Assembly: GCF_053078305.1 (NCBI RefSeq) | Contig: NZ_CP166879.1 | Reading direction: 5' to 3' (one strand) | Length of the DNA stretch: 64,000 bases | Part shown: positions 1 to 57,995 of the stretch, in pieces | Position numbering within the stretch: the first letter of the stretch is position 1 | Layout: every line of letters starts with the position of its first letter | Position numbers and translations under genes: made by a program | The notes under the pieces: model-generated | The model's database searches: none | What the model was told of the DNA's origin: nothing | What the model saw: the letters and a program-made list of their open reading frames with translations, nothing else

Positions 1-505
1 AAAACTCGGGCAGGAAACCGTCAAAATCGACCATCAGCACGCGCTGGTATCCCGCTTGTAACAGGCTAAGCACTTCACACAAACCTTGCTGGAAAGTGTC
101 GCGACCAGCAGAAAGCGATGACGAAACGATCGGCTGTTTGGCCGCAATGGTCAGGTTACCCACGGAAGAGTTGTGTACTGAAAGTGCAAAGTCGGTCGGA
201 GAAAGCGCCTGTTCGGTTGCCAGTGCATGAACAATGCGGTAATTGCGCTCCAGTTCGCCATGACGACTGGTATACAAAACGGCGTCTGGCTGATGGCGGC
301 GTAGCATTGCCAGACCGCATTCAACAGCCAGTTTGCTGCCTGAACTGAGGCGGCGGGCGGTCATCATTGGCAGTTCACTTAATTTTGCCAACGGCGCGGC
401 AGGGTCAATCGCCCACGGCTGGCGCGACCATGCTTGCCATTGCTGCGCTTCGCTAAGTCCAGGCGCCAGTGCCTGCCAGTCGGTAATATTTAATGTAAAT
501 TTCAT
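1..505 (-). CDS. Partial CDS (N-terminal 168 codons, continues beyond window start): ketosynthase/chain-length-factor-like protein of a fatty-acid/polyketide-type accessory cluster
   Basis: Reverse-strand translation from ATG at 505 gives MKFTLNITDWQALAPGLSEAQQWQAWSRQPWAIDPAAPLAKLSELPMMTARRLSSGSKLAVECGL... with no stop before position 1. Family assignment is by resemblance only. The two forward-strand ORFs in the track (118-348, 333-524) are treated as antisense artefacts. Confidence 0.5.
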   Translation of the reverse strand, partial: MKFTLNITDWQALAPGLSEAQQWQAWSRQPWAIDPAAPLAKLSELPMMTARRLSSGSKLAVECGLAMLRRHQPDAVLYTSRHGELERNYRIVHALATEQALSPTDFALSVHNSSVGNLTIAAKQPIVSSSLSAGRDTFQQGLCEVLSLLQAGYQRVLMVDFDGFLPEF

Positions 506-545
506 CAACGCGCGCCCGCGGTAAACCAAAATTATTAAGTGACGA

Positions 546-1613
546 TTATTTCTTTTGGCATATCAAAAGTGTATGCCCAACGCCTAAATTATCGTGGCGC
601 TCTGCTACCTGGAATCCTGCTTTATTCAGATAGTCGTAAAATTTCTCTGCACTATAGAAACGGCTGTTACCGTTTGCCATGCAGGTAAAATAAAGTGAGG
701 ACGCGTTCAGGCTAAACGATGCTGCTTCAAACCGCTGCGCATCCCAGAACAACTCCATGATGCAAACTTTTGCGCCAGGCTTCATTACGCTGGCAATTTT
801 GCTGAGTATGCTAATTATTTGTTCGGGTGAAAAACAGTCTAAAAATTGGCTCATCCACCAGATATCAGCCTCGCCCGGTAATGGGGCATCGCTTAGCATA
901 TCCACCGCATGGAAATCTATGCGATCAGAAAAACCTGCATTCGCGATATTTTCTTTCGCTAGTACGATTTGTTGTGGCAGATCTAATAACGTCACGGCGA
1001 TGTTTTCATTGTATTTGCAGCAACGCAAAGCCCACTTACCCGTATTGCCGCCTACATCGTACAATGTTGTGGGGTTGTTGGCGAATACATAAGGCAGTGC
1101 GGCGTTAAATGCGCCATCTGAATAGTAATGATCAAACGCAAACCAGCTTTCACGAGCGGCGTCTGGTAATTGCGAAAGTGCCGGATATATCGTCGACCAG
1201 TCGCCAAATACTTTTAACCCGGAAGGTTTTCCTTCATTGAGTGAATCGGCGAGGAAGAAGAGCCCCTGGTAACAGACATCCTGGGTGAAATCCATATTCA
1301 CGCGAGTCATAGTGTCATGCAGGAGGTAATGACCGATTTTCGCCAGGTAATAAATTCCCTCTTTACAGGTAATAATTCGCCCGCTTAAGCCCATATCTAA
1401 CAGAACGCTGGCAGCATATTCGTTGATATGGCTATGTTCGGTGATATCAGCCAGCGTTGCGCCATGTTTGCCTTGCCGATCCAGATATGAAAGTACACCC
1501 GCATTACGTAGGCAGAGTGCTGTTTGAAAAAGCATAGGGGCAAAGGCAATGCGTTGAGCTTCGGTAATCGCATCCAGTGCGCTAAGAGAATCCTGTTCGT
1601 ACATGTTGGGCAC
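546..1613 (-). CDS. Class I SAM-dependent (O-)methyltransferase-like protein; accessory relative to K-12
   Basis: 355-aa ORF with a glycine-rich SAM-binding motif I (LYDVGGNTGKWAL) and downstream acidic residue. It sits 40 bp upstream of the ketosynthase-like gene on the same strand. Start may be GTG at 1613 or ATG at 1604. Confidence 0.6.
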   Translation of the reverse strand: MPNMYEQDSLSALDAITEAQRIAFAPMLFQTALCLRNAGVLSYLDRQGKHGATLADITEHSHINEYAASVLLDMGLSGRIITCKEGIYYLAKIGHYLLHDTMTRVNMDFTQDVCYQGLFFLADSLNEGKPSGLKVFGDWSTIYPALSQLPDAARESWFAFDHYYSDGAFNAALPYVFANNPTTLYDVGGNTGKWALRCCKYNENIAVTLLDLPQQIVLAKENIANAGFSDRIDFHAVDMLSDAPLPGEADIWWMSQFLDCFSPEQIISILSKIASVMKPGAKVCIMELFWDAQRFEAASFSLNASSLYFTCMANGNSRFYSAEKFYDYLNKAGFQVAERHDNLGVGHTLLICQKK

Positions 1614-1672
1614 AACCTGTTAAGAGGGAATTAAATTATTATCGGACCGCAACGGCCCGACTTTAGGAGGAA

Positions 1673-2050
1673 TTATAAATCTGCGCCCGCTGACAAATTC
1701 AGTTGAATATCTTTGTCGAGATTGCGGACCCAGCGATTGTAGTTTTTATGAATTTGTCCGCCTGACGCTTGAAGGTTCTGGCTATTTTCATAATTGATAT
1801 CGTAGCTGGATGCCGTGTAGTTAATGCGTATTTCCGCTGAATGATCGCGTGACTGTTGACGTGCTTTAATTATGCCTTGTCCGGCTTCGGACATAATCCA
1901 TTTGCGTTCAACGCCAGCTTTCAGAATCGCTTTTTTCACTTGTTCCTGGGTATGACCAGCGCTGACGGTTGAGTGAACCTGATCAATTGGCGCAGTACGC
2001 GCGCAACCCGCTAAAGCACCCACAACAGCAATAGCCGCAAACCATTTCAT
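1673..2050 (-). CDS. Putative lipoprotein
   Basis: Trimmed to internal Met: MKWFAAIAVVGALAGC... has a signal peptide with lipobox LAGC. No recognised catalytic motif. Confidence 0.5.
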   Translation of the reverse strand: MKWFAAIAVVGALAGCARTAPIDQVHSTVSAGHTQEQVKKAILKAGVERKWIMSEAGQGIIKARQQSRDHSAEIRINYTASSYDINYENSQNLQASGGQIHKNYNRWVRNLDKDIQLNLSAGADL

Positions 2051-2441
2051 GTAATGTCTCATTAGAACCCCATTAAAGTATTGTTTTTACGAGTAAAGCA
2101 AGTTTTAACTGTAATTGCTGGCATCACTATTCTTTATTTAGAGAAAAAATTACTTGTGAGATAAGTCAGTAAGTGCACATCAGAGTAAAAATCTCTGAAA
2201 TGACTAAATTACTGCCAGCAGGGACCAACTATAAGTGAGTGAGAAAAATGAGGCAATAAAAATAACACAATGTTATCAGTGCATTCTTTGAGAAGGATTT
2301 AATCGCTATTCGGCGTTTATATATATTTGACTTAAGGAATGGTTTTTTTAAATTAATTTTCTGAATAATGTTTCATCATTTCCTCAAATCAAATGGCCAC
2401 TGTTAGATAAACGGTGGCCATTGCCTGCTCAGGAGGTGCTA

Positions 2442-3491
2442 TTAACCCGGTAACCGACTTTTCGGTCTGCCCGGCCCCAGTAAAATCGCCAGTTTGCTGC
2501 CGCCTTTCGTCGTTTCCATCCAGATTTTACACACGCTGGTTAATGGCACCGAAAGTAGCATCCCTACCGGGCCGAGCAGCCATCCCCAAATTAACAATGA
2601 AAGAAATACCACCATGGTGGACATCCCCAGGCGATGGCCCATCATCCGTGGTTCTAAAATATTGCCGATGACCATATGGACCACTAAAAACAATGCGCCG
2701 ACCAGAATACATTCGTAAACACCATTAAACAGCAGCACCTGAATCATTGGCGGTACGGCGGAAATTACCGCGCCGATATTGGGCACGTAGTTGAGCAAAA
2801 ACGCCAGTACTGCCCACATCAGCGCAAACTGCACCCCCATCAGCTCCAGCCCCAGCCAGACGATGACACCTGTCCATAAACTGAGTAGCGTCTTTAACGC
2901 CAGATAATGCGAAACGCCTTTAAGTGCGCGGTGTAGTCCGGCGATATGAATCTGTGGATTATTCAATGCAAAACGCATTTTGTAAGGGACGTGGCGCACT
3001 TCAAACAGCATAAAAACTACGGTCATCACCAGCAAAAGCACGCTCGCCATTGCCCCGGAAAGCCCGGTCATTAGCGCTGTGGTGAAGGTAACCACTTTTT
3101 CCGAGTCCATCCGCTGCAGCATTCGCTCCGGCGACATATGCAAATTAAGAAAAGGCAACATCTCCTGCAATTTAAAAAGTTTGCGCGTCAGCTCCTTATT
3201 AAACTTCGGCAGCATAGAGATAAATTCGTTAAACGATGCCGCCAGTACGCCGACCAGCGCGGTTAGTGCGATCAGCATCACCACCACTACAATCGTAATG
3301 GCAACGGGGCGTTGTACTCCCCGACGAATAAACCAGGTGACGAGCGGGTTGAGGACGATGGCAAAAAACAGCGCCAGTAACAGCTGCACAATGATATCTG
3401 CCGCTGCGTGAATGCCCGCGAGGATCACTACCAGCGAGGCCAGCTTGAGCAGAATGTGCATGCCCGTTTTATCGGGTTGAGGGGTTTCCAT
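2442..3491 (-). CDS. yhhT: AI-2E/PerM-family membrane transporter
   Basis: Polytopic membrane protein. ORF trimmed to Met giving 349 aa; position next to yhhS matches the K-12 order. Confidence 0.85.
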   Translation of the reverse strand: METPQPDKTGMHILLKLASLVVILAGIHAAADIIVQLLLALFFAIVLNPLVTWFIRRGVQRPVAITIVVVVMLIALTALVGVLAASFNEFISMLPKFNKELTRKLFKLQEMLPFLNLHMSPERMLQRMDSEKVVTFTTALMTGLSGAMASVLLLVMTVVFMLFEVRHVPYKMRFALNNPQIHIAGLHRALKGVSHYLALKTLLSLWTGVIVWLGLELMGVQFALMWAVLAFLLNYVPNIGAVISAVPPMIQVLLFNGVYECILVGALFLVVHMVIGNILEPRMMGHRLGMSTMVVFLSLLIWGWLLGPVGMLLSVPLTSVCKIWMETTKGGSKLAILLGPGRPKSRLPG

Positions 3492-3622
3492 TGGGGCTTC
3501 CTTGTGACTTTTTGTATTAAGTGTAGCGGGAGTAACGCCAGCAATATTCTGATTCTTACTGCTGATTTTCACGTCAGCACGTGGTAAAAATGAAACACTG
3601 TTGTAAAAATGTGGTGATCCTC

Positions 3623-4840
3623 ATGCCCGAACCCGTAGCCGAACCCGCGCTAAACGGATTGCGCCTGAATTTGCGCATTGTCTCCATTGTCATGTTTAAC
3701 TTCGCCAGCTACCTCACCATCGGGTTGCCGCTCGCTGTATTACCGGGCTATGTCCATGATGTGATGGGCTTTAGCGCTTTCTGGGCAGGATTGGTTATCA
3801 GCCTGCAATATTTCGCCACCTTGCTGAGCCGTCCTCATGCCGGACGTTACGCCGATTTGCTGGGCCCCAAAAAGATTGTCGTCTTCGGTTTATGCGGCTG
3901 CTTTTTGAGCGGTCTGGGATATCTGACGGCAGGATTAACCGCCAGTCTGCCCGTCATCAGCCTGTTATTACTTTGCCTGGGACGCGTCATCCTTGGGATT
4001 GGGCAAAGTTTTGCCGGAACGGGATCGACCCTGTGGGGCGTTGGCGTGGTTGGCTCGCTGCATATCGGGCGGGTGATTTCGTGGAACGGCATTGTCACTT
4101 ATGGGGCGATGGCGATGGGTGCGCCGTTAGGTGTCGTGTTTTATCACTGGGGCGGCTTGCAGGCGTTAGCGTTAATCATTATGGGCGTGGCGCTGGTGGC
4201 CATTTTGTTGGCGATCCCGCGTCCGACGGTAAAAGCCAGTAAAGGCAAACCGCTGCCGTTTCGCGCGGTGCTTGGGCGTGTCTGGCTGTACGGTATGGCG
4301 CTGGCACTGGCTTCCGCCGGATTTGGCGTCATCGCCACCTTTATCACGCTGTTTTATGACGCTAAAGGTTGGGACGGTGCGGCTTTCGCGCTGACGCTGT
4401 TTAGCTGTGCGTTTGTCGGTACGCGTTTGTTATTCCCTAACGGCATTAACCGTATCGGCGGCTTAAACGTAGCGATGATTTGCTTTAGCGTTGAGATAAT
4501 CGGCCTGCTACTGGTTGGCGTGGCGACTATGCCGTGGATGGCGAAAATCGGCGTCTTACTAGCGGGGGCCGGGTTTTCGCTGGTGTTCCCGGCATTGGGT
4601 GTAGTGGCGGTAAAAGCGGTTCCGCAGCAAAATCAGGGGGCGGCGCTGGCAACTTACACCGTATTTATGGATTTATCGCTTGGCGTGACTGGACCACTGG
4701 CTGGGCTGGTGATGAGCTGGGCGGGCGTACCGGTGATTTATCTGGCGGCGGCGGGACTGGTCGCAATCGCGTTATTACTGACGTGGCGATTAAAAAAACG
4801 GCCTCCGGAACACGTCCCTGAGGCCGCCTCATCATCTTAA
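3623..4840 (+). CDS. yhhS: MFS transporter
   Basis: 12-TM-like hydrophobic protein. Trimmed to Met giving 405 aa; divergent from yhhT. Confidence 0.85.
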   Translation: MPEPVAEPALNGLRLNLRIVSIVMFNFASYLTIGLPLAVLPGYVHDVMGFSAFWAGLVISLQYFATLLSRPHAGRYADLLGPKKIVVFGLCGCFLSGLGYLTAGLTASLPVISLLLLCLGRVILGIGQSFAGTGSTLWGVGVVGSLHIGRVISWNGIVTYGAMAMGAPLGVVFYHWGGLQALALIIMGVALVAILLAIPRPTVKASKGKPLPFRAVLGRVWLYGMALALASAGFGVIATFITLFYDAKGWDGAAFALTLFSCAFVGTRLLFPNGINRIGGLNVAMICFSVEIIGLLLVGVATMPWMAKIGVLLAGAGFSLVFPALGVVAVKAVPQQNQGAALATYTVFMDLSLGVTGPLAGLVMSWAGVPVIYLAAAGLVAIALLLTWRLKKRPPEHVPEAASSS

Positions 4841-6605: not shown

Positions 6606-6706
6606 TGGGGGCAGATTGGCTTCGATGCCGCCTTTTCCCCTCACCCTAACCCTCTCCCCAGAGGAGCGAGGGGACCGATCGCGCTCAATGTTGCGATCGG
6701 TTTGCC

Positions 6707-16804: not shown

Positions 16805-16862
16805 TCATTAATCGGCAACTTTGGGTTGCCGCCAAATTGCTAATATCGAGTACGTTGCTTCA

Positions 16863-16972
<110 letters not shown>

Positions 16973-17003
16973 TGGTCATCACTTTTGAAATCAAACTTGA
17001 CGA

Positions 17004-22647: not shown

Positions 22648-22765
22648 ATTATCGAATACCCGGCGGCCACGTTCTGCCGGGCTCTTCGTCCGTATACAGA
22701 CTTGTTTCAACTGACCGGGAGGATTAAAACCAGACCACTTATTTGCCACGGAAAGGTTCCCTCCC

Positions 22766-23512
22766 ATGCATTATGCCGTTGTTGTCATGCTTGAACTGCT
22801 TTGCTGTATTCACGCTTACCGTACCGGACAAGAGCGGTACTGGATTTTTATCATTTTCTGTTTTCCGGTGATTGGCTGCGTGGCGTATTTCGTCATAGTG
22901 ATGCTGCCTGAAACGGGCGCTGACCGTCACGGGCATACTTTGCTGATGCGCCTGCAGAACAAACTCAACCCTGAGCGCCACCTGCGCAAATTAACCGAAG
23001 AACTGGCGATTGCCGAGACGAATCAAAACCATTATGCGTTGGCTAATGAACTGGCGCGTCTGGGGCGTTATCACGAAGCTGTTCCCCATTATCAGCAGGC
23101 GTTAAGCGGGATATTCGCCCATGAAGCGGCAATGATGCTAAGCCTGGCGCAGGCACAGTTTGCTATTCAGGAGTTCGCCGCCTGTCAGCAGACGCTGGAA
23201 GATGTGATGCGTTATAACCCTGATTTTCAGTCGGCAGACGGGCATTTGTTATTTGCCAGAACGTTAGCCGCACAAGAAAAATACGCTGATGCGGAAAGCG
23301 AGTTTGAAGTATTGATTTCTTATTACCCCGGCCCGCAGGCGCGTATTTACTATGCGGAAATGTTGGCGAAAATGAGTCGGTTACGTGAAGCCAACGAGCA
23401 GTATGTTGCTGTAGTTGATACGGCTAAACGCTCAAGACCTCATTATAGAAAACACCACCGGGAATGGATTAAGACCGCCAATGAACGGCTGAAGCAGAGT
23501 GTGGTGCAATGA
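22766..23512 (+). CDS. Hypothetical membrane-anchored protein: PLD-nuclease N-terminal-like two-helix anchor plus a TPR-like helical-repeat domain; accessory relative to K-12
   Basis: 248-aa ORF with its own RBS (GGAAAGG) and a downstream hairpin terminator. The N-terminus (CCIHAYRTGQERYWIFIIFCFPVIGCVAYFVIVMLPE) looks like a PLDc_N-type small membrane domain; the remainder is helical and alanine/leucine-rich. Confidence 0.6.
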   Translation: MHYAVVVMLELLCCIHAYRTGQERYWIFIIFCFPVIGCVAYFVIVMLPETGADRHGHTLLMRLQNKLNPERHLRKLTEELAIAETNQNHYALANELARLGRYHEAVPHYQQALSGIFAHEAAMMLSLAQAQFAIQEFAACQQTLEDVMRYNPDFQSADGHLLFARTLAAQEKYADAESEFEVLISYYPGPQARIYYAEMLAKMSRLREANEQYVAVVDTAKRSRPHYRKHHREWIKTANERLKQSVVQ

Positions 23513-23582
23513 AAATCTTCTTTGCCGTTAGACCAGTGTCGCGGCAATCTTTTGTTAAAATTGAAAAATGTAGCTCTCATCG

Positions 23583-23620
23583 GGCAGCAAAACTGGACGC
23601 AGAATTTGCTGCCATTTTTG
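23583..23620 (+). terminator. Hairpin terminator after the 22766-23512 gene
   Basis: GGCAGCAAA, loop, TTTGCTGCC, then ATTTTTG. Confidence 0.6.
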
Positions 23621-23871
23621 CTCTTCATGGTAAGGAGTTCTGGCGATTAGCTGGCCGTTAATCGCCTCTTTTCAGTGCATTCTCGGGATATCCGTGCCCC
23701 ATCTCCCATTTTCCCTCACCCGTACCGTCACCGCCTTGTCATCTTTCTGACACCTTACTATCTTACAAATGTAACAAAAAAGTTATTTTTCTGTAATTCG
23801 AGCATGTCATGTTACCCCGCGAGCATAAAACGCGTGAATTCGCGCATTCGGTACAACAAGAGAGATAAACG

Positions 23872-31890: not shown

Positions 31891-32385
31891 TTATGAACAA
31901 CTGTCCATGATTTCGTTTAAGAATGAAGAGAAATCACTAAACGAACTGAATATATTTTCTGTGCCAATATTATCTCTAATTTCAAAAAAGTTACTTTTAA
32001 TGTCATAAGTAAATATTGAAATGCTATCATCCCCGATCACTAACCGTTCTTGTAGATCAGGGTTTATGAAATCATCATTATTTCTATAAAATTCATTTAC
32101 GGCAAAAAGGTTTTTAACTGAAGGTTCTGGAATCGAGAGGCTAAATAATCGTAATCCATTAACTTCGAATCCATCCATTGCTCTTAAAAAAGTAAGATAA
32201 TCAGGTTGATTCTTAAAAAGAATACTAACTTCATTACATAACTTCTCCAGGCAATTAGTTGAATTAGAATTAAATTCTATTTGGATTATACTTTCAATAA
32301 ATGATTCCTTGAGCGGTGCTTCAAATGGATAGTCTAAATCATTCATCATTTTTATTAATTTGTTTATTTGGGTTTTAGTCATCAT
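31891..32385 (-). CDS. yrhA: Putative immunity protein for the upstream Hcp-HNH toxin (intact yrhA-like gene)
   Basis: 164-aa acidic protein whose start sits in an ATGATGA overlap with the yhhZ stop, indicating translational coupling. AT-rich. Calling it the intact counterpart of the K-12 yrhA pseudogene is from memory. Confidence 0.65.
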   Translation of the reverse strand: MMTKTQINKLIKMMNDLDYPFEAPLKESFIESIIQIEFNSNSTNCLEKLCNEVSILFKNQPDYLTFLRAMDGFEVNGLRLFSLSIPEPSVKNLFAVNEFYRNNDDFINPDLQERLVIGDDSISIFTYDIKSNFFEIRDNIGTENIFSSFSDFSSFLNEIMDSCS

Positions 32386-34407: not shown

Positions 34408-34497
34408 GCGATCAGGAAGACCCTCGCGGAGAACCTGAAAGCACGACATTGCTCACATTGCTTCCAGTATTACTTAGCCAGCCGGGTGCTGGCTTTT
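34408..34497 (+). ncRNA. ryhB: Iron-responsive small RNA RyhB
   Basis: GCGATCAGGAAGACCCTCGCGGAGAACCTGAAAGCACGACATTGCTCACATTGCTTCCAGTATTACTTAGCCAGCCGGGTGCTGGCTTTT matches the RyhB sequence as I recall it, ending in its intrinsic terminator hairpin plus U-run. Located between yhhY and yhhX as in K-12. Confidence 0.92.
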
Positions 34498-34619
34498 TTT
34501 TTGATCTTTCGTTCTCAATTTATCCTCGGGAAGTGCTTGTGTTCGTTATGCGCACTCCAGTAGGAACCACGTCCGCTTTGCGCTAAGGTGTAAATAACCA
34601 CCTTAAAAAGGACGAAATC

Positions 34620-39704: not shown

Positions 39705-39718
39705 TTACTGCGACAAAT

Positions 39719-39750
39719 TACTGCGAGCTTGCTCGCAGTAATTCATTTCT
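39719..39750 (+). terminator. Terminator after gntU
   Basis: Perfect palindrome ACTGCGAGCTTGCTCGCAGT followed by a T-rich tract. Confidence 0.7.
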
Positions 39751-39843
39751 CTTTTCTCCTCTCTTCATCTTTTTGATCTCTCTCGCAAATTTACCTGCAA
39801 ATAATCCGTTCTAATCACTGCCTAAAGATCGCAGGAGATAAAG

Positions 39844-41940
39844 ATGGAAAAGCACGCAGCTGAATTGCTTTTACAGCGGATGTTAGGAAATACCACCGCT
39901 ACTTTCAGGGAAGGGCAATGGGAAGCCATAGACGCGGTGGTGAACCAACGGCGAAAACTGCTGGTTGTCCAACGCACTGGCTGGGGGAAAAGTGCTGTGT
40001 ACTTCATCGCCAGTAAAATCTTCCGCGATCGCGGCGCTGGCCCGACAATTATCATCTCTCCTTTGCTTGCCCAGATGCGTAACCAGGTTGCCGCCGCTGA
40101 ACGGTTAGGTATTACGGCTGAAACGTTGAATTCTACAAACAGGGAAGAATGGCAGCGCATTAGCGATAAGTTGCTGCAAGGTGCGGTCGATTGCTTGCTG
40201 GTTTCCCCGGAACGTTTGGCAAACCAGGACTTTATCGAAACGGTTTTATATCCTATAGCCGATCGTATTGGCTTGCTTGTGGTCGACGAGGCGCACTGCA
40301 TCTCTGATTGGGGCCACGATTTTCGCCCGGATTACCGACGTATATTAGATATTTTGCGCCAACTACCTGCGAATACCCCTGTTCTGGGTACAACCGCGAC
40401 AGCGAATAACCGTGTCGTTGAGGATATCCGTCAGCAATTGGGTGACATTGTGATTCAGCGTGGAACGCTGGCTCGCGAAAGTTTGGCGCTTGATGCCTTA
40501 GTCTTAGGTGAACAGTCATCCCGTCTGGCATGGTTAGCAACGGTTATCCCTCAGTTTTCCAAATCGGGAATTGTTTATACCCTGACTACTCGCGATGCCG
40601 AACTTGTCGCCGAGTGGTTAAGGAAAAATGGTATCAGTGCATTTGCTTACTACAGCGGCGTGACTTGTGAAGGCGCGGAAGATTCTAATACTGCCAGGGA
40701 ATATCTGGAGCAGGCGTTGCTGGCAAATAAAATTAAAGTGCTGGTTGCGACAACGGCGCTGGGAATGGGCTTTGACAAACCGGATTTGGGGTTTGTTATT
40801 CATTACCAGATGCCAGGTTCGATAGTTGGTTACTACCAACAGGTGGGGCGTGCCGGTCGCGGTATCGATTCTGCTGTTGGCATACTGCTTTGCGGCAGTG
40901 AAGACCGTGCTATTCATAAATTCTTCCGTGAAAGCGCCTTTCCTGCGGAGGCGCAAATTCATGAATTACTCAACGTACTTAGCGTGAATGACGGTCTTAC
41001 CTTACGAGGCATTGAACAACGGACGAATCTCCGTTATGGGCAAATAGAAAAAGCACTGAAATTATTGGTAGCTGAAAATCCATCGCCTGTGGTGTATACC
41101 GAGAAATTATGGCGCAGAACAATTGTCAGTTTTTCTCCTGACCATGAACGAATTAACCATTTGATGAATCAGAGAAAAAGTGAGCTGGCAGACGTTGAAA
41201 GCTATATCACGACCAAGGAGTGCAAAATGCAATTTCTGCGCCGCGCACTCGATGAGCCAGGTGCCGAACATTGTGGTAAATGTAGCAGTTGTCTTCAGCA
41301 TCCGTTGTTGTCGCCCGACATTGATAGCGGCTTACTCCATGCGGCAAACTTATTTATTAAACACGCTGACCTGTCATTAAATCTCAATAAACAGGTGGCA
41401 GCTGGGGCTTTTACGCAATACGGATTTAAAGGGAACTTGCCTGCGATTTTACAAGGATCTACGGGGCGAATCCTTTCTCGTTGGGGAGATTCCGGGTGGG
41501 GAAAGCAGGTAGCACAGGAGAAAAAAACGGGGCGATTCAGTGATGAACTGGTGGAGGCATGTGCGGAAATGGTTCGCCAACGCTGGAATCCGCATCCTGA
41601 ACCAACCTGGGTATGCTGCGTTCCTTCATTACAGCACCTCGACCTGGTTCCTGATTTTGCCCGGCGACTGGCGGCGAAACTTGGCTTACCTTTTATTGAT
41701 GCCATTGAAAAAGTCGTGGACAATCCACCGCAGAAAATGCAGCAAAACCGTTTCCACCAGTGTCAAAATCTCGACGGGGCGTTTGTGATTACCCCTCCTT
41801 TGATGCCTGGTCCGGCGTTGCTGGTTGACGATATCGTGGATTCTGCATGGACGCTGACAGTTCTGACAGCACTGTTACGCCAGGCAGGTTGCCCGACGGT
41901 TTATCCTCTTGCCCTTGCTTCTACCTCGGTAAAAAATTGA
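39844..41940 (+). CDS. RecQ-like superfamily-2 DNA helicase fused to a C-terminal phosphoribosyltransferase (ComF/PRTase-like) domain; accessory relative to K-12
   Basis: 698 aa with RecQ-type motifs in order: FREGQWEAI (motif 0), TGWGKS (Walker A), DEAHCISDWGHDFRPDY (DEAH box), TATA (motif III), VATTALGMGFDKPD (motif V), QQVGRAGRG (motif VI), then a Cys cluster HCGKCSSC. C-terminal PRPP-binding-like motif ALLVDDIVDSAWT. Good SD (AGGAGATAAAG) before the ATG. Confidence 0.8.
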   Translation: MEKHAAELLLQRMLGNTTATFREGQWEAIDAVVNQRRKLLVVQRTGWGKSAVYFIASKIFRDRGAGPTIIISPLLAQMRNQVAAAERLGITAETLNSTNREEWQRISDKLLQGAVDCLLVSPERLANQDFIETVLYPIADRIGLLVVDEAHCISDWGHDFRPDYRRILDILRQLPANTPVLGTTATANNRVVEDIRQQLGDIVIQRGTLARESLALDALVLGEQSSRLAWLATVIPQFSKSGIVYTLTTRDAELVAEWLRKNGISAFAYYSGVTCEGAEDSNTAREYLEQALLANKIKVLVATTALGMGFDKPDLGFVIHYQMPGSIVGYYQQVGRAGRGIDSAVGILLCGSEDRAIHKFFRESAFPAEAQIHELLNVLSVNDGLTLRGIEQRTNLRYGQIEKALKLLVAENPSPVVYTEKLWRRTIVSFSPDHERINHLMNQRKSELADVESYITTKECKMQFLRRALDEPGAEHCGKCSSCLQHPLLSPDIDSGLLHAANLFIKHADLSLNLNKQVAAGAFTQYGFKGNLPAILQGSTGRILSRWGDSGWGKQVAQEKKTGRFSDELVEACAEMVRQRWNPHPEPTWVCCVPSLQHLDLVPDFARRLAAKLGLPFIDAIEKVVDNPPQKMQQNRFHQCQNLDGAFVITPPLMPGPALLVDDIVDSAWTLTVLTALLRQAGCPTVYPLALASTSVKN

Positions 41941-43142
41941 TGAATCTTTCAGCCAATGCACAAGCAACTCTCCTGCTAACCAGCGATTTTTCTCGCGCGG
42001 CGGCGAGTGAGTATAAACCTCTTAGTAATAGTGAATGGGGGAAGTTTGCATTATGGCTGAAGCACCAACGTATCAGTCCCGCCGAGCTTCTGGTGCCGCA
42101 ACCGCAAGAGAAACTTACAGGCTGGAGCGATCCGCGTATTTCTCAGGAGCGTATTCTTGGCTTGCTGGCGCGTGGTCATAGTCTGGCGTTGGCGGTAGAT
42201 AAGTGGCAACGCGCCGGTTTATGGATCTTAACCCGCGGAGATGCTGATTATCCCGTTCGCTTGAAAAACCGATTGCGAACGGATGCACCTCCCGTTTTAT
42301 TTGGCTGCGGGAATAAAGCATTACTGCAAGCGGAAGGTATGGCGATTGTTGGCTCGCGAGATGCTCCGACTGACGATTTGCGCTATACCCAACAACTGGC
42401 CGCGAAACTGGCCCAACAGGGGATTTGCGTTATCTCTGGTGGTGCGCGAGGTATTGATGAATGTGCAATGGCGTCGGTACTGGAGGCCGGGGGAACTGCC
42501 GTTGGCGTATTAGCTGATAGCTTGTTAAAAACGAGTACGTTAGTGAAATGGCGTGAAGGGCTTATAGCAGGCAACCTGGTGTTGATTTCGCCGTTTTACC
42601 CAGAGGTACGTTTCACCGTCGGCAATGCGATGGCGCGAAATAAATATATTTATTGCCTTGCTGAAAGCGCAATGGTTGTACGTGCGGGAATGACCGGTGG
42701 AACGATAACCGGGGCGATGGAGGCATTAAAACATCAGTGGCTGCCTGTGCAGGTTAAACCAAATCAGGATATGCAATCAGCCAATTCACGATTAGTAGAA
42801 AATGGGGCGTCATGGAGTGCTGAACAGGCTGAGAATGTGACGATCAGACTGCCAGACGTTCCTGGGCTGATGTATGACAGAGCACTCCGTAACGCTCAAC
42901 CAGAACTGTTTTCGCTGCATGAAGATGACGCAAATTACGCAGTAATGCCCGCGTATACGCCTGTCGATTTTTATCAACTCTTTGTGGCGGAACTGGCGAT
43001 CCTTGCAAAGGAATCGATAAGTATTGAAAGGCTGGCGTCTTGTACTGGTTTAACCATCGAACAAATTAGTGTGTGGCTGAACCGCGCAGAAGAAGAGGGA
43101 AGGGTTATCCGATTGGGCGAAGGTCATTATCAGTTCAGGTAA
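41940..43142 (+). CDS. DprA/Smf-like (SLOG-type Rossmann) protein, coupled to the upstream helicase; accessory relative to K-12
   Basis: Start ATG overlaps the helicase stop (TGATG). About 400 aa with a DprA-like Rossmann core (GSRDAPTDDLRYTQQLAAKLAQQGICVISGGARGIDECAMASVLEAGGTAVGVLADSL ... FTVGNAMARNKYIYCLAESAMVV) and a C-terminal helical region. The track's upstream extension (41847) lies inside the helicase and is rejected. Confidence 0.75.
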   Translation: MNLSANAQATLLLTSDFSRAAASEYKPLSNSEWGKFALWLKHQRISPAELLVPQPQEKLTGWSDPRISQERILGLLARGHSLALAVDKWQRAGLWILTRGDADYPVRLKNRLRTDAPPVLFGCGNKALLQAEGMAIVGSRDAPTDDLRYTQQLAAKLAQQGICVISGGARGIDECAMASVLEAGGTAVGVLADSLLKTSTLVKWREGLIAGNLVLISPFYPEVRFTVGNAMARNKYIYCLAESAMVVRAGMTGGTITGAMEALKHQWLPVQVKPNQDMQSANSRLVENGASWSAEQAENVTIRLPDVPGLMYDRALRNAQPELFSLHEDDANYAVMPAYTPVDFYQLFVAELAILAKESISIERLASCTGLTIEQISVWLNRAEEEGRVIRLGEGHYQFR

Positions 43143-43187
43143 TAAAACAGGTGCCGCGTCTGGTTGTGTGCAGCACCTGTTTGAACC

Positions 43188-54833: not shown

Positions 54834-56351
54834 ATGGACAGAATGATGCCAAATAGAAAATGGATTTTGACCTCGCTGATAATGACTTTTTTCGGCATCC
54901 CCATACTGGCGCAATTTTTGGCAGCGGTTGTTGCCATGCTGGGTGTCGGGCTTACCGGTATTATTGAAGTTTGTAATATCCTTATCACGCCAACAATTTA
55001 TCTTCTACTCAACGTCTTTATGCTGACGCTGGGGGCGATAATAATATTTTTCTCTGGTCGCGTGTGGGCCGGTGATAGCGCGCCAGAAAACAGAGAAATA
55101 GCCGTCTGGCGGCAATGCTTTTTTCTCTTACCCGCGCTATTAACCCTGGTTGGCTGGATAATCACGCTACATCTGGCAGATTATCAATTTCGCCAGATGG
55201 GAGCTGGTTGGTTGGCAAACCTTATGCTTCCCTGGTTGGGCGTTTTTTTAGTCTCATTAGTGGGTGGTGAGTACTGGTGGATGGTCATTATTCCCGTTGG
55301 GGTGCATATCAGTTTTTCGCTGGGATACGCCTGGCCGACCAGATATCCTTTATCCGGCACGTCCGGACTACGTTGCCGTAACTTACTCCTGTTTCTACTT
55401 CTCTTACTTGGTATTGTCGCCGGGTATCAGGCCCATTTATATAAGCAGCAAAATCCTGGTGTCGGTGTACGCGAAAATATTGATATCTGGGCCTGGCGAC
55501 CCGATAAACTCAATAATCGACTGACGCCGCTGCGTGGCAAACCGCAAATTCAGTTTAGGCAAAACTGGCCGCGAATCGATGGCGCCACGGCTGCGTACCC
55601 AATTTATGCTTCTGCATTTTATGCATTAAGTGTAATACCAGAGGATTTTCACGTTTGGGATTATCTGGAAAACTCTCGTACGCCAGAAGCATATAACAAA
55701 ATCGTTAAGGGCGATGCTGATATTATTTTCGTGGCGCAACCTTCCGGTGGGCAAAAAAAACGTGCAAAGGAATCTGGTGTCACTTTGCTGTACACCCCCT
55801 TTGCCCGTGAAGCATTCGTTTTCATCGTCAATGCGGATAATCCGGTTAATTCCCTGACTGAACAACAGGTGCGTGACATTTTCAGTGGTGCAATTACCAA
55901 CTGGCGTACTTTTGGCGGTAACGATCAGGAGATCCAGACCTGGCAGCGCCCGGAAGACTCTGGCAGCCAGACAGTGATGCAATCACAGGTCATGAAAAAT
56001 GTCCGCATGATCTCGCCGCAGGAAACGGAAGTGGCAAGCGTGATGGAGGGAATGATTAAAGTCGTTGCCGAATACCGTAATACAAACAACGCAATAGGCT
56101 ATACCTTCCGCTATTACGCGACGCAAATGAATGCTGATAAAAATATAAAATTGCTAGCGATTAACGGTATTACACCGACGGCGGAAAACATTCGCAACGG
56201 CAAATATGCGTACATCGTCGATGCATTTATGGTGACGAGAGAAAATAAAACGTCAGAAACACAAAAACTGGTCGAATGGTTTTTAACGCCGCAGGGGCAG
56301 AGTCTGGTAGAAGATGTGGGATATGTGCCGCTGTATAAAATCTTACCTTAA
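54834..56351 (+). CDS. Membrane-anchored PstS-like (phosphate-binding-type) periplasmic binding domain protein; accessory relative to K-12
   Basis: 505 aa. The N-terminal roughly 200 aa hold multiple hydrophobic helices; the C-terminal roughly 280 aa resemble PstS-like binding proteins (IDGATAAYPIYASAF, LTEQQVRDIFSGAITNWRTFGG). Start may be ATG 54843, which has better SD spacing. Confidence 0.65.
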   Translation: MDRMMPNRKWILTSLIMTFFGIPILAQFLAAVVAMLGVGLTGIIEVCNILITPTIYLLLNVFMLTLGAIIIFFSGRVWAGDSAPENREIAVWRQCFFLLPALLTLVGWIITLHLADYQFRQMGAGWLANLMLPWLGVFLVSLVGGEYWWMVIIPVGVHISFSLGYAWPTRYPLSGTSGLRCRNLLLFLLLLLGIVAGYQAHLYKQQNPGVGVRENIDIWAWRPDKLNNRLTPLRGKPQIQFRQNWPRIDGATAAYPIYASAFYALSVIPEDFHVWDYLENSRTPEAYNKIVKGDADIIFVAQPSGGQKKRAKESGVTLLYTPFAREAFVFIVNADNPVNSLTEQQVRDIFSGAITNWRTFGGNDQEIQTWQRPEDSGSQTVMQSQVMKNVRMISPQETEVASVMEGMIKVVAEYRNTNNAIGYTFRYYATQMNADKNIKLLAINGITPTAENIRNGKYAYIVDAFMVTRENKTSETQKLVEWFLTPQGQSLVEDVGYVPLYKILP

Positions 56352-56453
56352 GCAGGATAATCATATGGATACCGGTATTATTCGCCTGAACGCGGCCAAT
56401 GCTCGTTTTGTTTATCAACCGTTTACACGCAATCAGCGGAAGAGGGAGTAATT

Positions 56454-57230
56454 ATGCAATGCAGCCCCGCCATGCAGGCATTAATTGAGCAGATTTATCA
56501 TATTTTTCGTCGTTATCCGGTGCCGTCGAGATTTCATGTTTGTTGTCCTTACTGCTTTAGCGAAGAACAACAACAAGCCTTAAGAGGGGTTTCACTGCGT
56601 GCCATACCTTTCCCTTTATTACATGCCTGGGGAACAAGTATTGGTCCTACCCCGCAAAATGATGATGAGATTCGCTATTTATTACCCAGATTGTTTGAAT
56701 TTATTTCCCAAAGGCAATTTCCAGGCATTTATGAAGGCTGCTGTTTACAGAGAATAGCAGAGGCAGATAACCAGAACTGGCGAACGGACGAACTACAAAT
56801 AATTAGCGATTTCGCCTATTTATATATGCAGGATTGGGTGTCGGCTAAGGAGGTCGTAGAACTGGAAATAATATTAGAAATGTTTTATCGCGGTGGTATA
56901 AAGATTGAACCCTTACTTGACGCCATTATGTCCATTTCCGGTTACTGGCCGACGGCGTCTATGGCATGTTTGCTCTGGCGTAACAGTAAAGAATACGTCG
57001 AAAATAGCGATTTTGAGCAGAGTGATGATAATAAAACTATTACCACTCAAATTAATACCTGGGCTAGAAATAATCATCCTTTTCTGAAAGAAAGAGCGCG
57101 ACAAGCGATTGAGAACCCACTAAAACAGCCTGAACCAATGACAGAATATCAAGTCTGGGAAGACGACTGGATGATTGATGAGTGTTTATGCGCGATGTAT
57201 GACGCATCACCCGAACAATCAGGACAATAA
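56454..57230 (+). CDS. Hypothetical Cys-rich soluble protein
   Basis: 258-aa ORF with a HVCCPYC cluster near the N-terminus and no recognised motifs; AT-rich codon usage. Confidence 0.5.
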   Translation: MQCSPAMQALIEQIYHIFRRYPVPSRFHVCCPYCFSEEQQQALRGVSLRAIPFPLLHAWGTSIGPTPQNDDEIRYLLPRLFEFISQRQFPGIYEGCCLQRIAEADNQNWRTDELQIISDFAYLYMQDWVSAKEVVELEIILEMFYRGGIKIEPLLDAIMSISGYWPTASMACLLWRNSKEYVENSDFEQSDDNKTITTQINTWARNNHPFLKERARQAIENPLKQPEPMTEYQVWEDDWMIDECLCAMYDASPEQSGQ

Positions 57231-57232
57231 AG

Positions 57233-57823
57233 ATGAATAAAATCAGACTTTATATTTATCCGCTATATCTCGGCTTTGTTATTGTGCCGTTGTTGGTGTG
57301 GCCGACGGTGGTTGTTGTTGGTATCACACTGAGTTTTCTAATGGAGATGCTGTTCTCAAATTCGTTCATGCACAGGCGTATTTCCCTTCTGGAATTACAA
57401 CTTGGGTTATTGGCTGAATATACGCTTTTGTTCTGCGCCATATGTTGCGTTGGTTGGCAATTTGCTCGCATAACTCAATCTGAATTGAAAAGCAAACTGC
57501 ATTATTGGCTGGTATTTGTACCAGTTTATTTCTGGTTGCTCCTGTGGAATATCATTTTCTATGTCGCGCCAGCGAAAATTGCATTGCTGGAAAATATGCG
57601 CAGTTTCTTTCTGACCGTTGTCTGGCTCCCACTGAATTTTTCGCCATTTTGGTCTCAACCGTGGATTGACTTTGTCGGTCCAATAAGCGCACAGCTTGGT
57701 TTTGCGTTGGGATATTATTGCCAGTGGCGTAGCAAAAATAGAAGCCAGAGGAAGAAGTGGGGCGAGTGGGTAATGTGCTTAAGTTTTGTTACGTTGGGTA
57801 TGATGGCGTGGGCTTTGCGGTAA
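57233..57823 (+). CDS. Hypothetical polytopic membrane protein
   Basis: 196-aa ORF with 4-5 predicted TM helices. Its start is 3 bp after the stop of the upstream ORF. Confidence 0.5.
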   Translation: MNKIRLYIYPLYLGFVIVPLLVWPTVVVVGITLSFLMEMLFSNSFMHRRISLLELQLGLLAEYTLLFCAICCVGWQFARITQSELKSKLHYWLVFVPVYFWLLLWNIIFYVAPAKIALLENMRSFFLTVVWLPLNFSPFWSQPWIDFVGPISAQLGFALGYYCQWRSKNRSQRKKWGEWVMCLSFVTLGMMAWALR

Positions 57824-57857: not shown

Positions 57858-57995
57858 AACGTGGCGCTTTGTTCATGCCTGATGCGGCGTGAACGCCTTA
57901 TCAGGCCTACAAAATCATGCAAATTCAACATATTGCATAAACCACGTAGGCCTGATAAGCGTAGCGCATCAGGCAATTTTGTGTTTGTCATCAGT
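57858..57995. repeat. REP/BIME palindromic units between the accessory module and glpD
   Basis: GCCTGATGCGGCGTGAACGCCTTATCAGGCCTACA and inverted TAGGCCTGATAAGCGTAGCGCATCAGGCA. Confidence 0.85.

Follow-up and report, generated by a model that had tools for sequence, protein, structure and literature searches.

The left end of the window, by which we mean the whole stretch of 64,000 nucleotides analysed, carries three open reading frames on the minus strand, one of which starts at 505 and stays open to the window edge. They are separated by a non-coding leader from the core gene yhhT. In order along the window the following genes and features were identified.

1-505, minus strand: 5' part of apeC (codons 1-168 of 240), predicted half-size ketosynthase-like chain-length factor, running off the left window edge
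546-1604, minus strand: apeB, predicted 352-aa SAM-dependent methyltransferase, putatively for methylation of the aryl head group
1673-2062, minus strand: apeA, predicted 129-aa lipoprotein, first gene of the cluster; in RefSeq 125 aa from 2050
2063-2441, no strand: AT-rich, non-coding, island-specific leader between yhhT and apeA, presumed site of the ape promoter
2392-2422, no strand: inverted repeat (arms of 13 nt) in island-side DNA, starting about 20 nt past the end of yhhT in its reading direction
2442-3491, minus strand: yhhT (AI-2E family transporter), core-genome flank, with K-12 homology from 2446
right of yhhT, plus strand: yhhS, from the list of open reading frames

A preliminary description of this DNA had placed a lipoprotein gene, a methyltransferase gene and the start of a ketosynthase-like gene on the reverse strand, and all three were recovered with Pfam, NCBIfam and the lipobox motif, the family scores lying well above chance level. 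The window is chromosomal DNA of E. coli. Their translations are 100% identical (ApeC over its visible part) to the RefSeq-annotated proteins of E. coli L001 (NZ_CP083585), a genome that shares 99.8% DNA identity with the window over positions 1-4000. Six further reading frames in 1-2700, opposite to or overlapping these genes, gave no Pfam family and were for that reason taken to be non-coding, as shadows of yhhT and the ape genes. An Rfam scan of the whole window placed no family within 1-2500, the leader included.

Products of apeC, apeB and apeA

The fragment at 1-505 encodes the N-terminal domain of a beta-ketoacyl synthase (PF13723 Ketoacyl-synt_2, E 6e-52), and its visible 167 residues are 100% identical to the chain-length factor WP_123003729.1 of L001. 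The full-length homologue aligned end to end with the crystal structure of Xenorhabdus doucetiae ApeC (6QSP_B, residues 1-238, E 1e-91), and it also matched ApeC of A. baumannii (7F28, E 1.6e-14). As judged from the sequence, the fragment belongs to a predicted half-size, ketosynthase-like chain-length factor ApeC with a single thiolase fold, the partner of ApeO. In a weak and non-significant local BLASTP alignment (E = 16) the ApeC stretch LSVHNSS stands opposite LSTACSS of ApeO, a change from Cys to Asn. The structural and biochemical roles of the ApeO-ApeC pair have been described (PMC8358021).

ApeB contains an O-methyltransferase domain (PF00891, E 7e-18), a dimerisation domain (PF21212) and the SAM-binding motif DVGGNTG. 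Its gene adjoins apeC, and position and size agree with c1203/ApeB of strain CFT073 (PMC8253772, Table 1). The deletion of apeB in X. doucetiae was reported to yield desmethyl products (bioRxiv 10.1101/2020.12.19.423268). The best NCBIfam match of ApeB is the FlxJ family of flexirubin biosynthesis (NF053543, 473.7 bits, E 3e-142), below the equivalog cutoff of 560; the protein is thus predicted to be a methyltransferase that is related to the FlxJ family and lies outside its equivalog membership. Since flexirubins and aryl polyenes (APEs) are related pigment classes and FlxJ is the best match of the methyltransferase, a flexirubin-type or dialkylresorcinol-type pigment cluster might be considered in place of an Enterobacterial APE cluster, but the score of 474 bits stays under the family cutoff and the 18 genes of the L001 cluster correspond one-to-one to apeA-apeR with nothing extra, so that we regard the probability of such a cluster as practically negligible.

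ApeA carries a canonical L-A-G-C lipobox and matched no Pfam family. It has 347 homologues in the Enterobacterales, which outside its own genus are mostly 129 aa long; orthologues occupy the same position in Citrobacter, and its counterpart in CFT073 is c1204/ApeA. The three genes of the window agree with the CFT073 table, in which c1204 is listed as the lipoprotein ApeA, c1203 as the SAM methyltransferase ApeB and c1202 as the ketosynthase-like ApeC (PMC8253772). We aligned the leader and the start of apeA across four loci, namely the window, Citrobacter rodentium, Citrobacter koseri and the B2-type island. The ATG at 2062 and its purine-rich Shine-Dalgarno sequence are kept in all four, whereas at 2050, where RefSeq lets the gene begin with ATG, the three loci besides the window read ATT or ATA. 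Consequently the 129-aa form starting at 2062 is better supported than the 125-aa form. In the literature, deletion of apeA leaves pigmentation intact and blocks full assembly of the APE lipid (PMC8253772). The AlphaFold2 model of ApeA, a confident one (pLDDT 81.9), shows a beta-alpha-beta4-alpha domain, for which a Foldseek search against the PDB returned nothing at E <= 0.001. The nearest folds in the PDB were KA1 domains, a BamC domain and Flpp3 (TM about 0.4-0.55, 5-13% identity), a hint that the modelled fold may be a small alpha/beta domain facing the membrane or lipid, from which we draw no functional conclusion.

The yhhT-acpT slot and its leader

The preliminary description let the cluster end at 2062; this position is the conserved start codon of apeA, and the boundary of the island itself lies beyond the 379-bp leader, at 2445/2446, at the stop codon of yhhT. 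That stop codon (2442-2444) is TAA in the window and TGA in K-12. On the far side, homology to K-12 ends at L001 position 7052, 20 bp above acpT and within the 3' end of apeR. The island hence corresponds to L001 7053-22445, about 15.4 kb, of which the window holds the right-hand 2,445 bases. It had further been stated that acpT is found on this side of yhhT in K-12, which is correct, as acpT directly follows yhhT there at a distance of 54 bp; however, the island is situated between yhhT and acpT and does not replace acpT, which is kept at the far end of the island in both L001 and a second locus, L007.

The first 20 bp of the 54-bp spacer between yhhT and acpT in K-12 are identical to the 3' end of apeR, and the other 34 bp gave no significant match in the island. 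In C. rodentium and C. koseri the same slot reads tusA, yhhQ, dcrB, yhhS, yhhT, apeA, apeB, apeC and onwards. Because Citrobacter has the cluster in the same slot and K-12 keeps a remnant of apeR, the K-12 arrangement represents a deletion. This deletion has already been published, in agreement with the title of De Lay and Cronan 2006 (Mol Microbiol 61:232), and the cluster explains why AcpT of K-12 is left without a substrate, which is likewise in print. At about 6695-6706 the window lacks a small gene for a hypothetical protein, which in L001 is situated between tusA and zntA.

The leader has no counterpart in K-12 and a GC content of about 44-47%, as against 52-60% in the rest of the cluster (GC profile of L001). 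Apart from the Shine-Dalgarno sequence and the start codon it is poorly conserved across genera and island types, and the four-locus alignment revealed no conserved regulatory box besides these two. Scanning 1550-2500 for promoters and terminators gave two promoter-like sites where 2.0 were expected by chance. The promoter-like site at 2256-2228 on the minus strand is no better than chance, and the scan thus provides no ground for placing a promoter in the leader. The inverted repeat at 2392-2422, with arms that are 92% complementary and a 5-nt loop, is a possible terminator of yhhT, although the terminator scan, which requires a run of T after the stem, did not call it. In the relatives with the highest DNA identity (H1-H3) the leader between apeA and the yhhT stop codon is interrupted by an IS1A element (locus L008, 2946-3643, corresponding to a position just left of window 2442), an insertion that is absent from the window.

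Gene content, proposed pathway and related clusters

Leftward of the window position, L001 has 15 more genes before acpT and nikA are reached. In order they encode a lysophospholipid acyltransferase, two carrier proteins, a hypothetical protein, an AMP-binding enzyme, an ApeI-family dehydratase, a family-2 glycosyltransferase, a thioesterase, a LolA-family protein, an MMPL transporter, a DUF3261 protein, a ketosynthase, an ApeP-family dehydratase, FabG2 and a second ketosynthase. In the strains that bear the island, O157:H7 among them, the 18-gene block between yhhT and acpT comprises two carrier proteins, three ketosynthase-like proteins, a ketoreductase, two dehydratases, a thioesterase and export genes. 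The remaining APE core, including the aryl-acid AMP-ligase ApeH, ApeO/ApeR, ApeQ, ApeI/ApeP, the transferases and the export proteins, is present in L001 and in O157:H7. The preliminary description had proposed to look upstream for carrier proteins, ketosynthases, a thioesterase, export genes and acpT, and in near-identical genomes every one of these is present; unrelated upstream genes or an isolated methyltransferase and ketosynthase-like gene, which it had named as counter-evidence, were not encountered there.

Only three of the 18 genes are visible in the window, one of them partially, and the completeness of the cluster in the window genome is therefore extrapolated from these near-identical relatives. 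A decayed or truncated remnant, of which the edge alone survives, would fit the position of the other 15 genes outside the window and the IS activity to which the locus is subject, as seen from the IS1 insertions in the leader of the closest relatives. Against it, none of the three visible frames is disrupted and all agree fully with their counterparts in genomes that have the whole cluster, at least 80% of segment 1-2062 is covered in 821 of the 824 genomes that match it, and the full block was found in all four E. coli loci inspected and, as far as the compared DNA extended, in the Citrobacter loci. A remnant is hence very unlikely. We are highly confident that window 1-2445 is the promoter-proximal end of the E. 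coli APE cluster at its ancestral yhhT-acpT site.

The assignment to an aryl-polyene type, already suggested in the preliminary description, is borne out by the gene order, which equals apeA-apeR of CFT073 (PMC8253772), and by the match of ApeC to 6QSP_B. The APE_Ec cluster of CFT073 (c1204-c1186; Johnston et al. 2021, PMC8253772) agrees with it in all 18 genes, in their order and in their orientation. It differs in its chromosomal site, as the B2 type (ATCC 25922, taken as CFT073-like) resides in a pathogenicity island and the window type between yhhT and acpT, and the B2-type leader upstream of apeA is unrelated to that of the window type. The second comparison drawn earlier, with the O157:H7 island next to acpT, also holds: O157:H7 shows the same layout of yhhT, 18 genes and acpT, with the same gene block at the same site and 98.0% DNA identity over window 1-2062. 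Its ApeA shares the RefSeq accession WP_001301470.1 with ApeA of L001, which is 100% identical to the translation from the window. O157:H7 differs from the window by about 2% nucleotide divergence and by the ataRT pair that it carries nearby and the window does not. In X. doucetiae, which belongs to another genus, ApeC aligns end to end and the head group is the same, 4-hydroxy-3-methylphenyl; the corresponding study (bioRxiv 10.1101/2020.12.19.423268) analyses apeB-apeR and contains no occurrence of apeA. Furthermore, a pangenome study had already labelled the O157/ST11 segment as APE with antiSMASH (PMC9205054). The cluster as such is therefore already known from the literature and in itself of low interest.

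The original reading of the O157:H7 island was that of an accessory, fatty acid synthase-like island making an unusual fatty acid and not a polyene. The enzymes are indeed of this kind (ketosynthases, FabG2, FabZ/FabA-like dehydratases and acyl carrier proteins). Yet the colinear CFT073 cluster, which is 94-100% identical in most genes, yields an aryl polyene when expressed heterologously (PMC8253772), ApeC matches the solved APE chain-length factor with the E value given above, and the cluster includes the aryl-acid AMP-ligase ApeH together with ApeI/ApeP-family dehydratases. An unusual fatty acid as the product is thus extremely unlikely.

By analogy with the work on CFT073 and Xenorhabdus (PMC8253772, PMC8358021, bioRxiv 10.1101/2020.12.19.423268), a chemistry and a phenotype may be proposed that go beyond the observed identity and order of the genes, their junctions and their distribution. 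The cluster would be read from the leader leftwards, from apeA through apeR. ApeH would load 4-hydroxybenzoate onto the carrier protein (ApeE/F, activated by AcpT) and ApeR would initiate the chain. ApeO and the presumably catalytically silent, half-size ApeC, in the role of chain-length factor, would extend the polyene with malonyl units, each round being followed by reduction and dehydration through ApeQ and ApeI/ApeP. ApeB is expected to add the methyl group to the ring. ApeK, ApeD and ApeJ may set the product free and link it to a glycerol-phosphate-GalNAc lipid, and ApeG, ApeL, ApeM, ApeN and possibly the lipoprotein ApeA may transfer it to the outer membrane, where the pigment would protect from oxidative stress and promote biofilm formation. 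The roles of ApeB, ApeD and ApeJ and the structure of the APE lipid were described for Xenorhabdus (bioRxiv 10.1101/2020.12.19.423268), and activation of the O157:H7 homologues of ApeE/F by AcpT is attributed to De Lay and Cronan 2006 as cited in PMC8253772 and PMC4103896. Yellow pigment was demonstrated for the CFT073 and Xenorhabdus clusters (PMC8253772, bioRxiv 10.1101/2020.12.19.423268), and native APE clusters were reported to show weak or no expression under laboratory conditions (including in bioRxiv 10.1101/2020.12.19.423268). According to the cited papers, the pigment in the outer membrane gives pathogenic E. coli protection against oxidative stress and favours the formation of biofilms. 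As ApeA, ApeG, ApeH and ApeI diverge from the CFT073 type, product and phenotype of the window-type cluster are inferred by homology.

Two E. coli cluster types and other differences in the window

Among 5,426 complete E. coli genomes, window 1-2062 was matched in 824 (about 15%). In about 569 of these the identity is at least 95% and the match continues through yhhT and yhhS. In about 254, which are B2 strains (for example ATCC 25922 and a derivative of Nissle), the identity is about 91% and the match extends only up to 1798. In ATCC 25922 (locus L003, 7037-22058) the cluster is part of a decayed pathogenicity island; acpT is not adjacent to it, and its neighbours are hemagglutinin/ShlB fragments, IS elements and genes of microcin H47. 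The window adds to the published picture a precise junction of the K-12 deletion, a better-supported start of apeA and a prevalence of 15% that is split over two chromosomal sites.

We compared the two types gene by gene between L001 7034-22050 and L003 7037-22058, with ATCC 25922 of the B2 type taken as CFT073-like; of the divergent blocks the window itself holds only the apeA part (1673-2062). Protein identities between the two types were as follows.

ApeR to ApeJ: 96-100%
ApeF to ApeB: 94-97% (ApeB 94.3%, ApeC 94.2%)
ApeG: 80.8%
ApeI: 70.9%
ApeH: 65.8%
ApeA: 64.8%

In the divergent blocks (ApeA and ApeG/H/I) both E. coli types resemble Citrobacter more than they resemble one another, which points to old divergent alleles and recombination. 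We met no mention of this two-type mosaic in the cited APE papers. As ApeH is the starter-loading enzyme, the choice of substrate might differ between the types. It is nevertheless rather unlikely that the yhhT-linked cluster is functionally unlike that of CFT073 by virtue of its divergent lipoprotein ApeA and of ApeG/H/I (the starter-loading ligase, a dehydratase and a membrane protein). If it were so, the two E. coli lineages could differ in the aryl starter that is loaded or in the way the pigment is anchored or exported, and the mosaic would be maintained by recombination.

Besides the ape island, the window differs from K-12 or from its relatives at several positions. Relative to K-12, 3.5 kb are inserted between gntU and yhgN (39705-43187), with genes for a 698-aa helicase (39844-41940, plus strand) and a 431-aa DprA/SLOG protein (41847-43142, plus strand). 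In PADLOC this pair matched the PsyrT/PsyrA defence pair, which is toxin-antitoxin-like, with 1057 and 669 bits. A second insertion of 2.7 kb (55069-57758) is located between glgP and glpD; there a 505-aa reading frame with a PBP_like_2 domain (54834-56351, plus strand) is followed by frames of 258 and 196 aa, neither of which gave a Pfam or PADLOC match. About 1 kb of extra DNA between livF and ugpB (22648-23688) contains a gene for a 248-aa tetratricopeptide-repeat protein (22766-23512, plus strand), which L001 has as well. The IS1E element that interrupts yrhA in K-12 is absent (31993-32004), and the gene is therefore presumably intact in the window. At about 16805-17000 the window lacks the toxin-antitoxin pair ataR-ataT, which is located between livJ and panM in L001 and O157:H7.

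The Rfam scan identified two small RNAs in the window, RyhB at 34437-34501 (83 bits) and ES036/CssrF at 57911-57953 (39 bits, just above the gathering score). The ES036 region matches at 84% an intergenic stretch of K-12 near panZ/livJ, and window 16855-16981 matches at 82% near glpD/yzgL of K-12. These cross-matches suggest a dispersed intergenic repeat.
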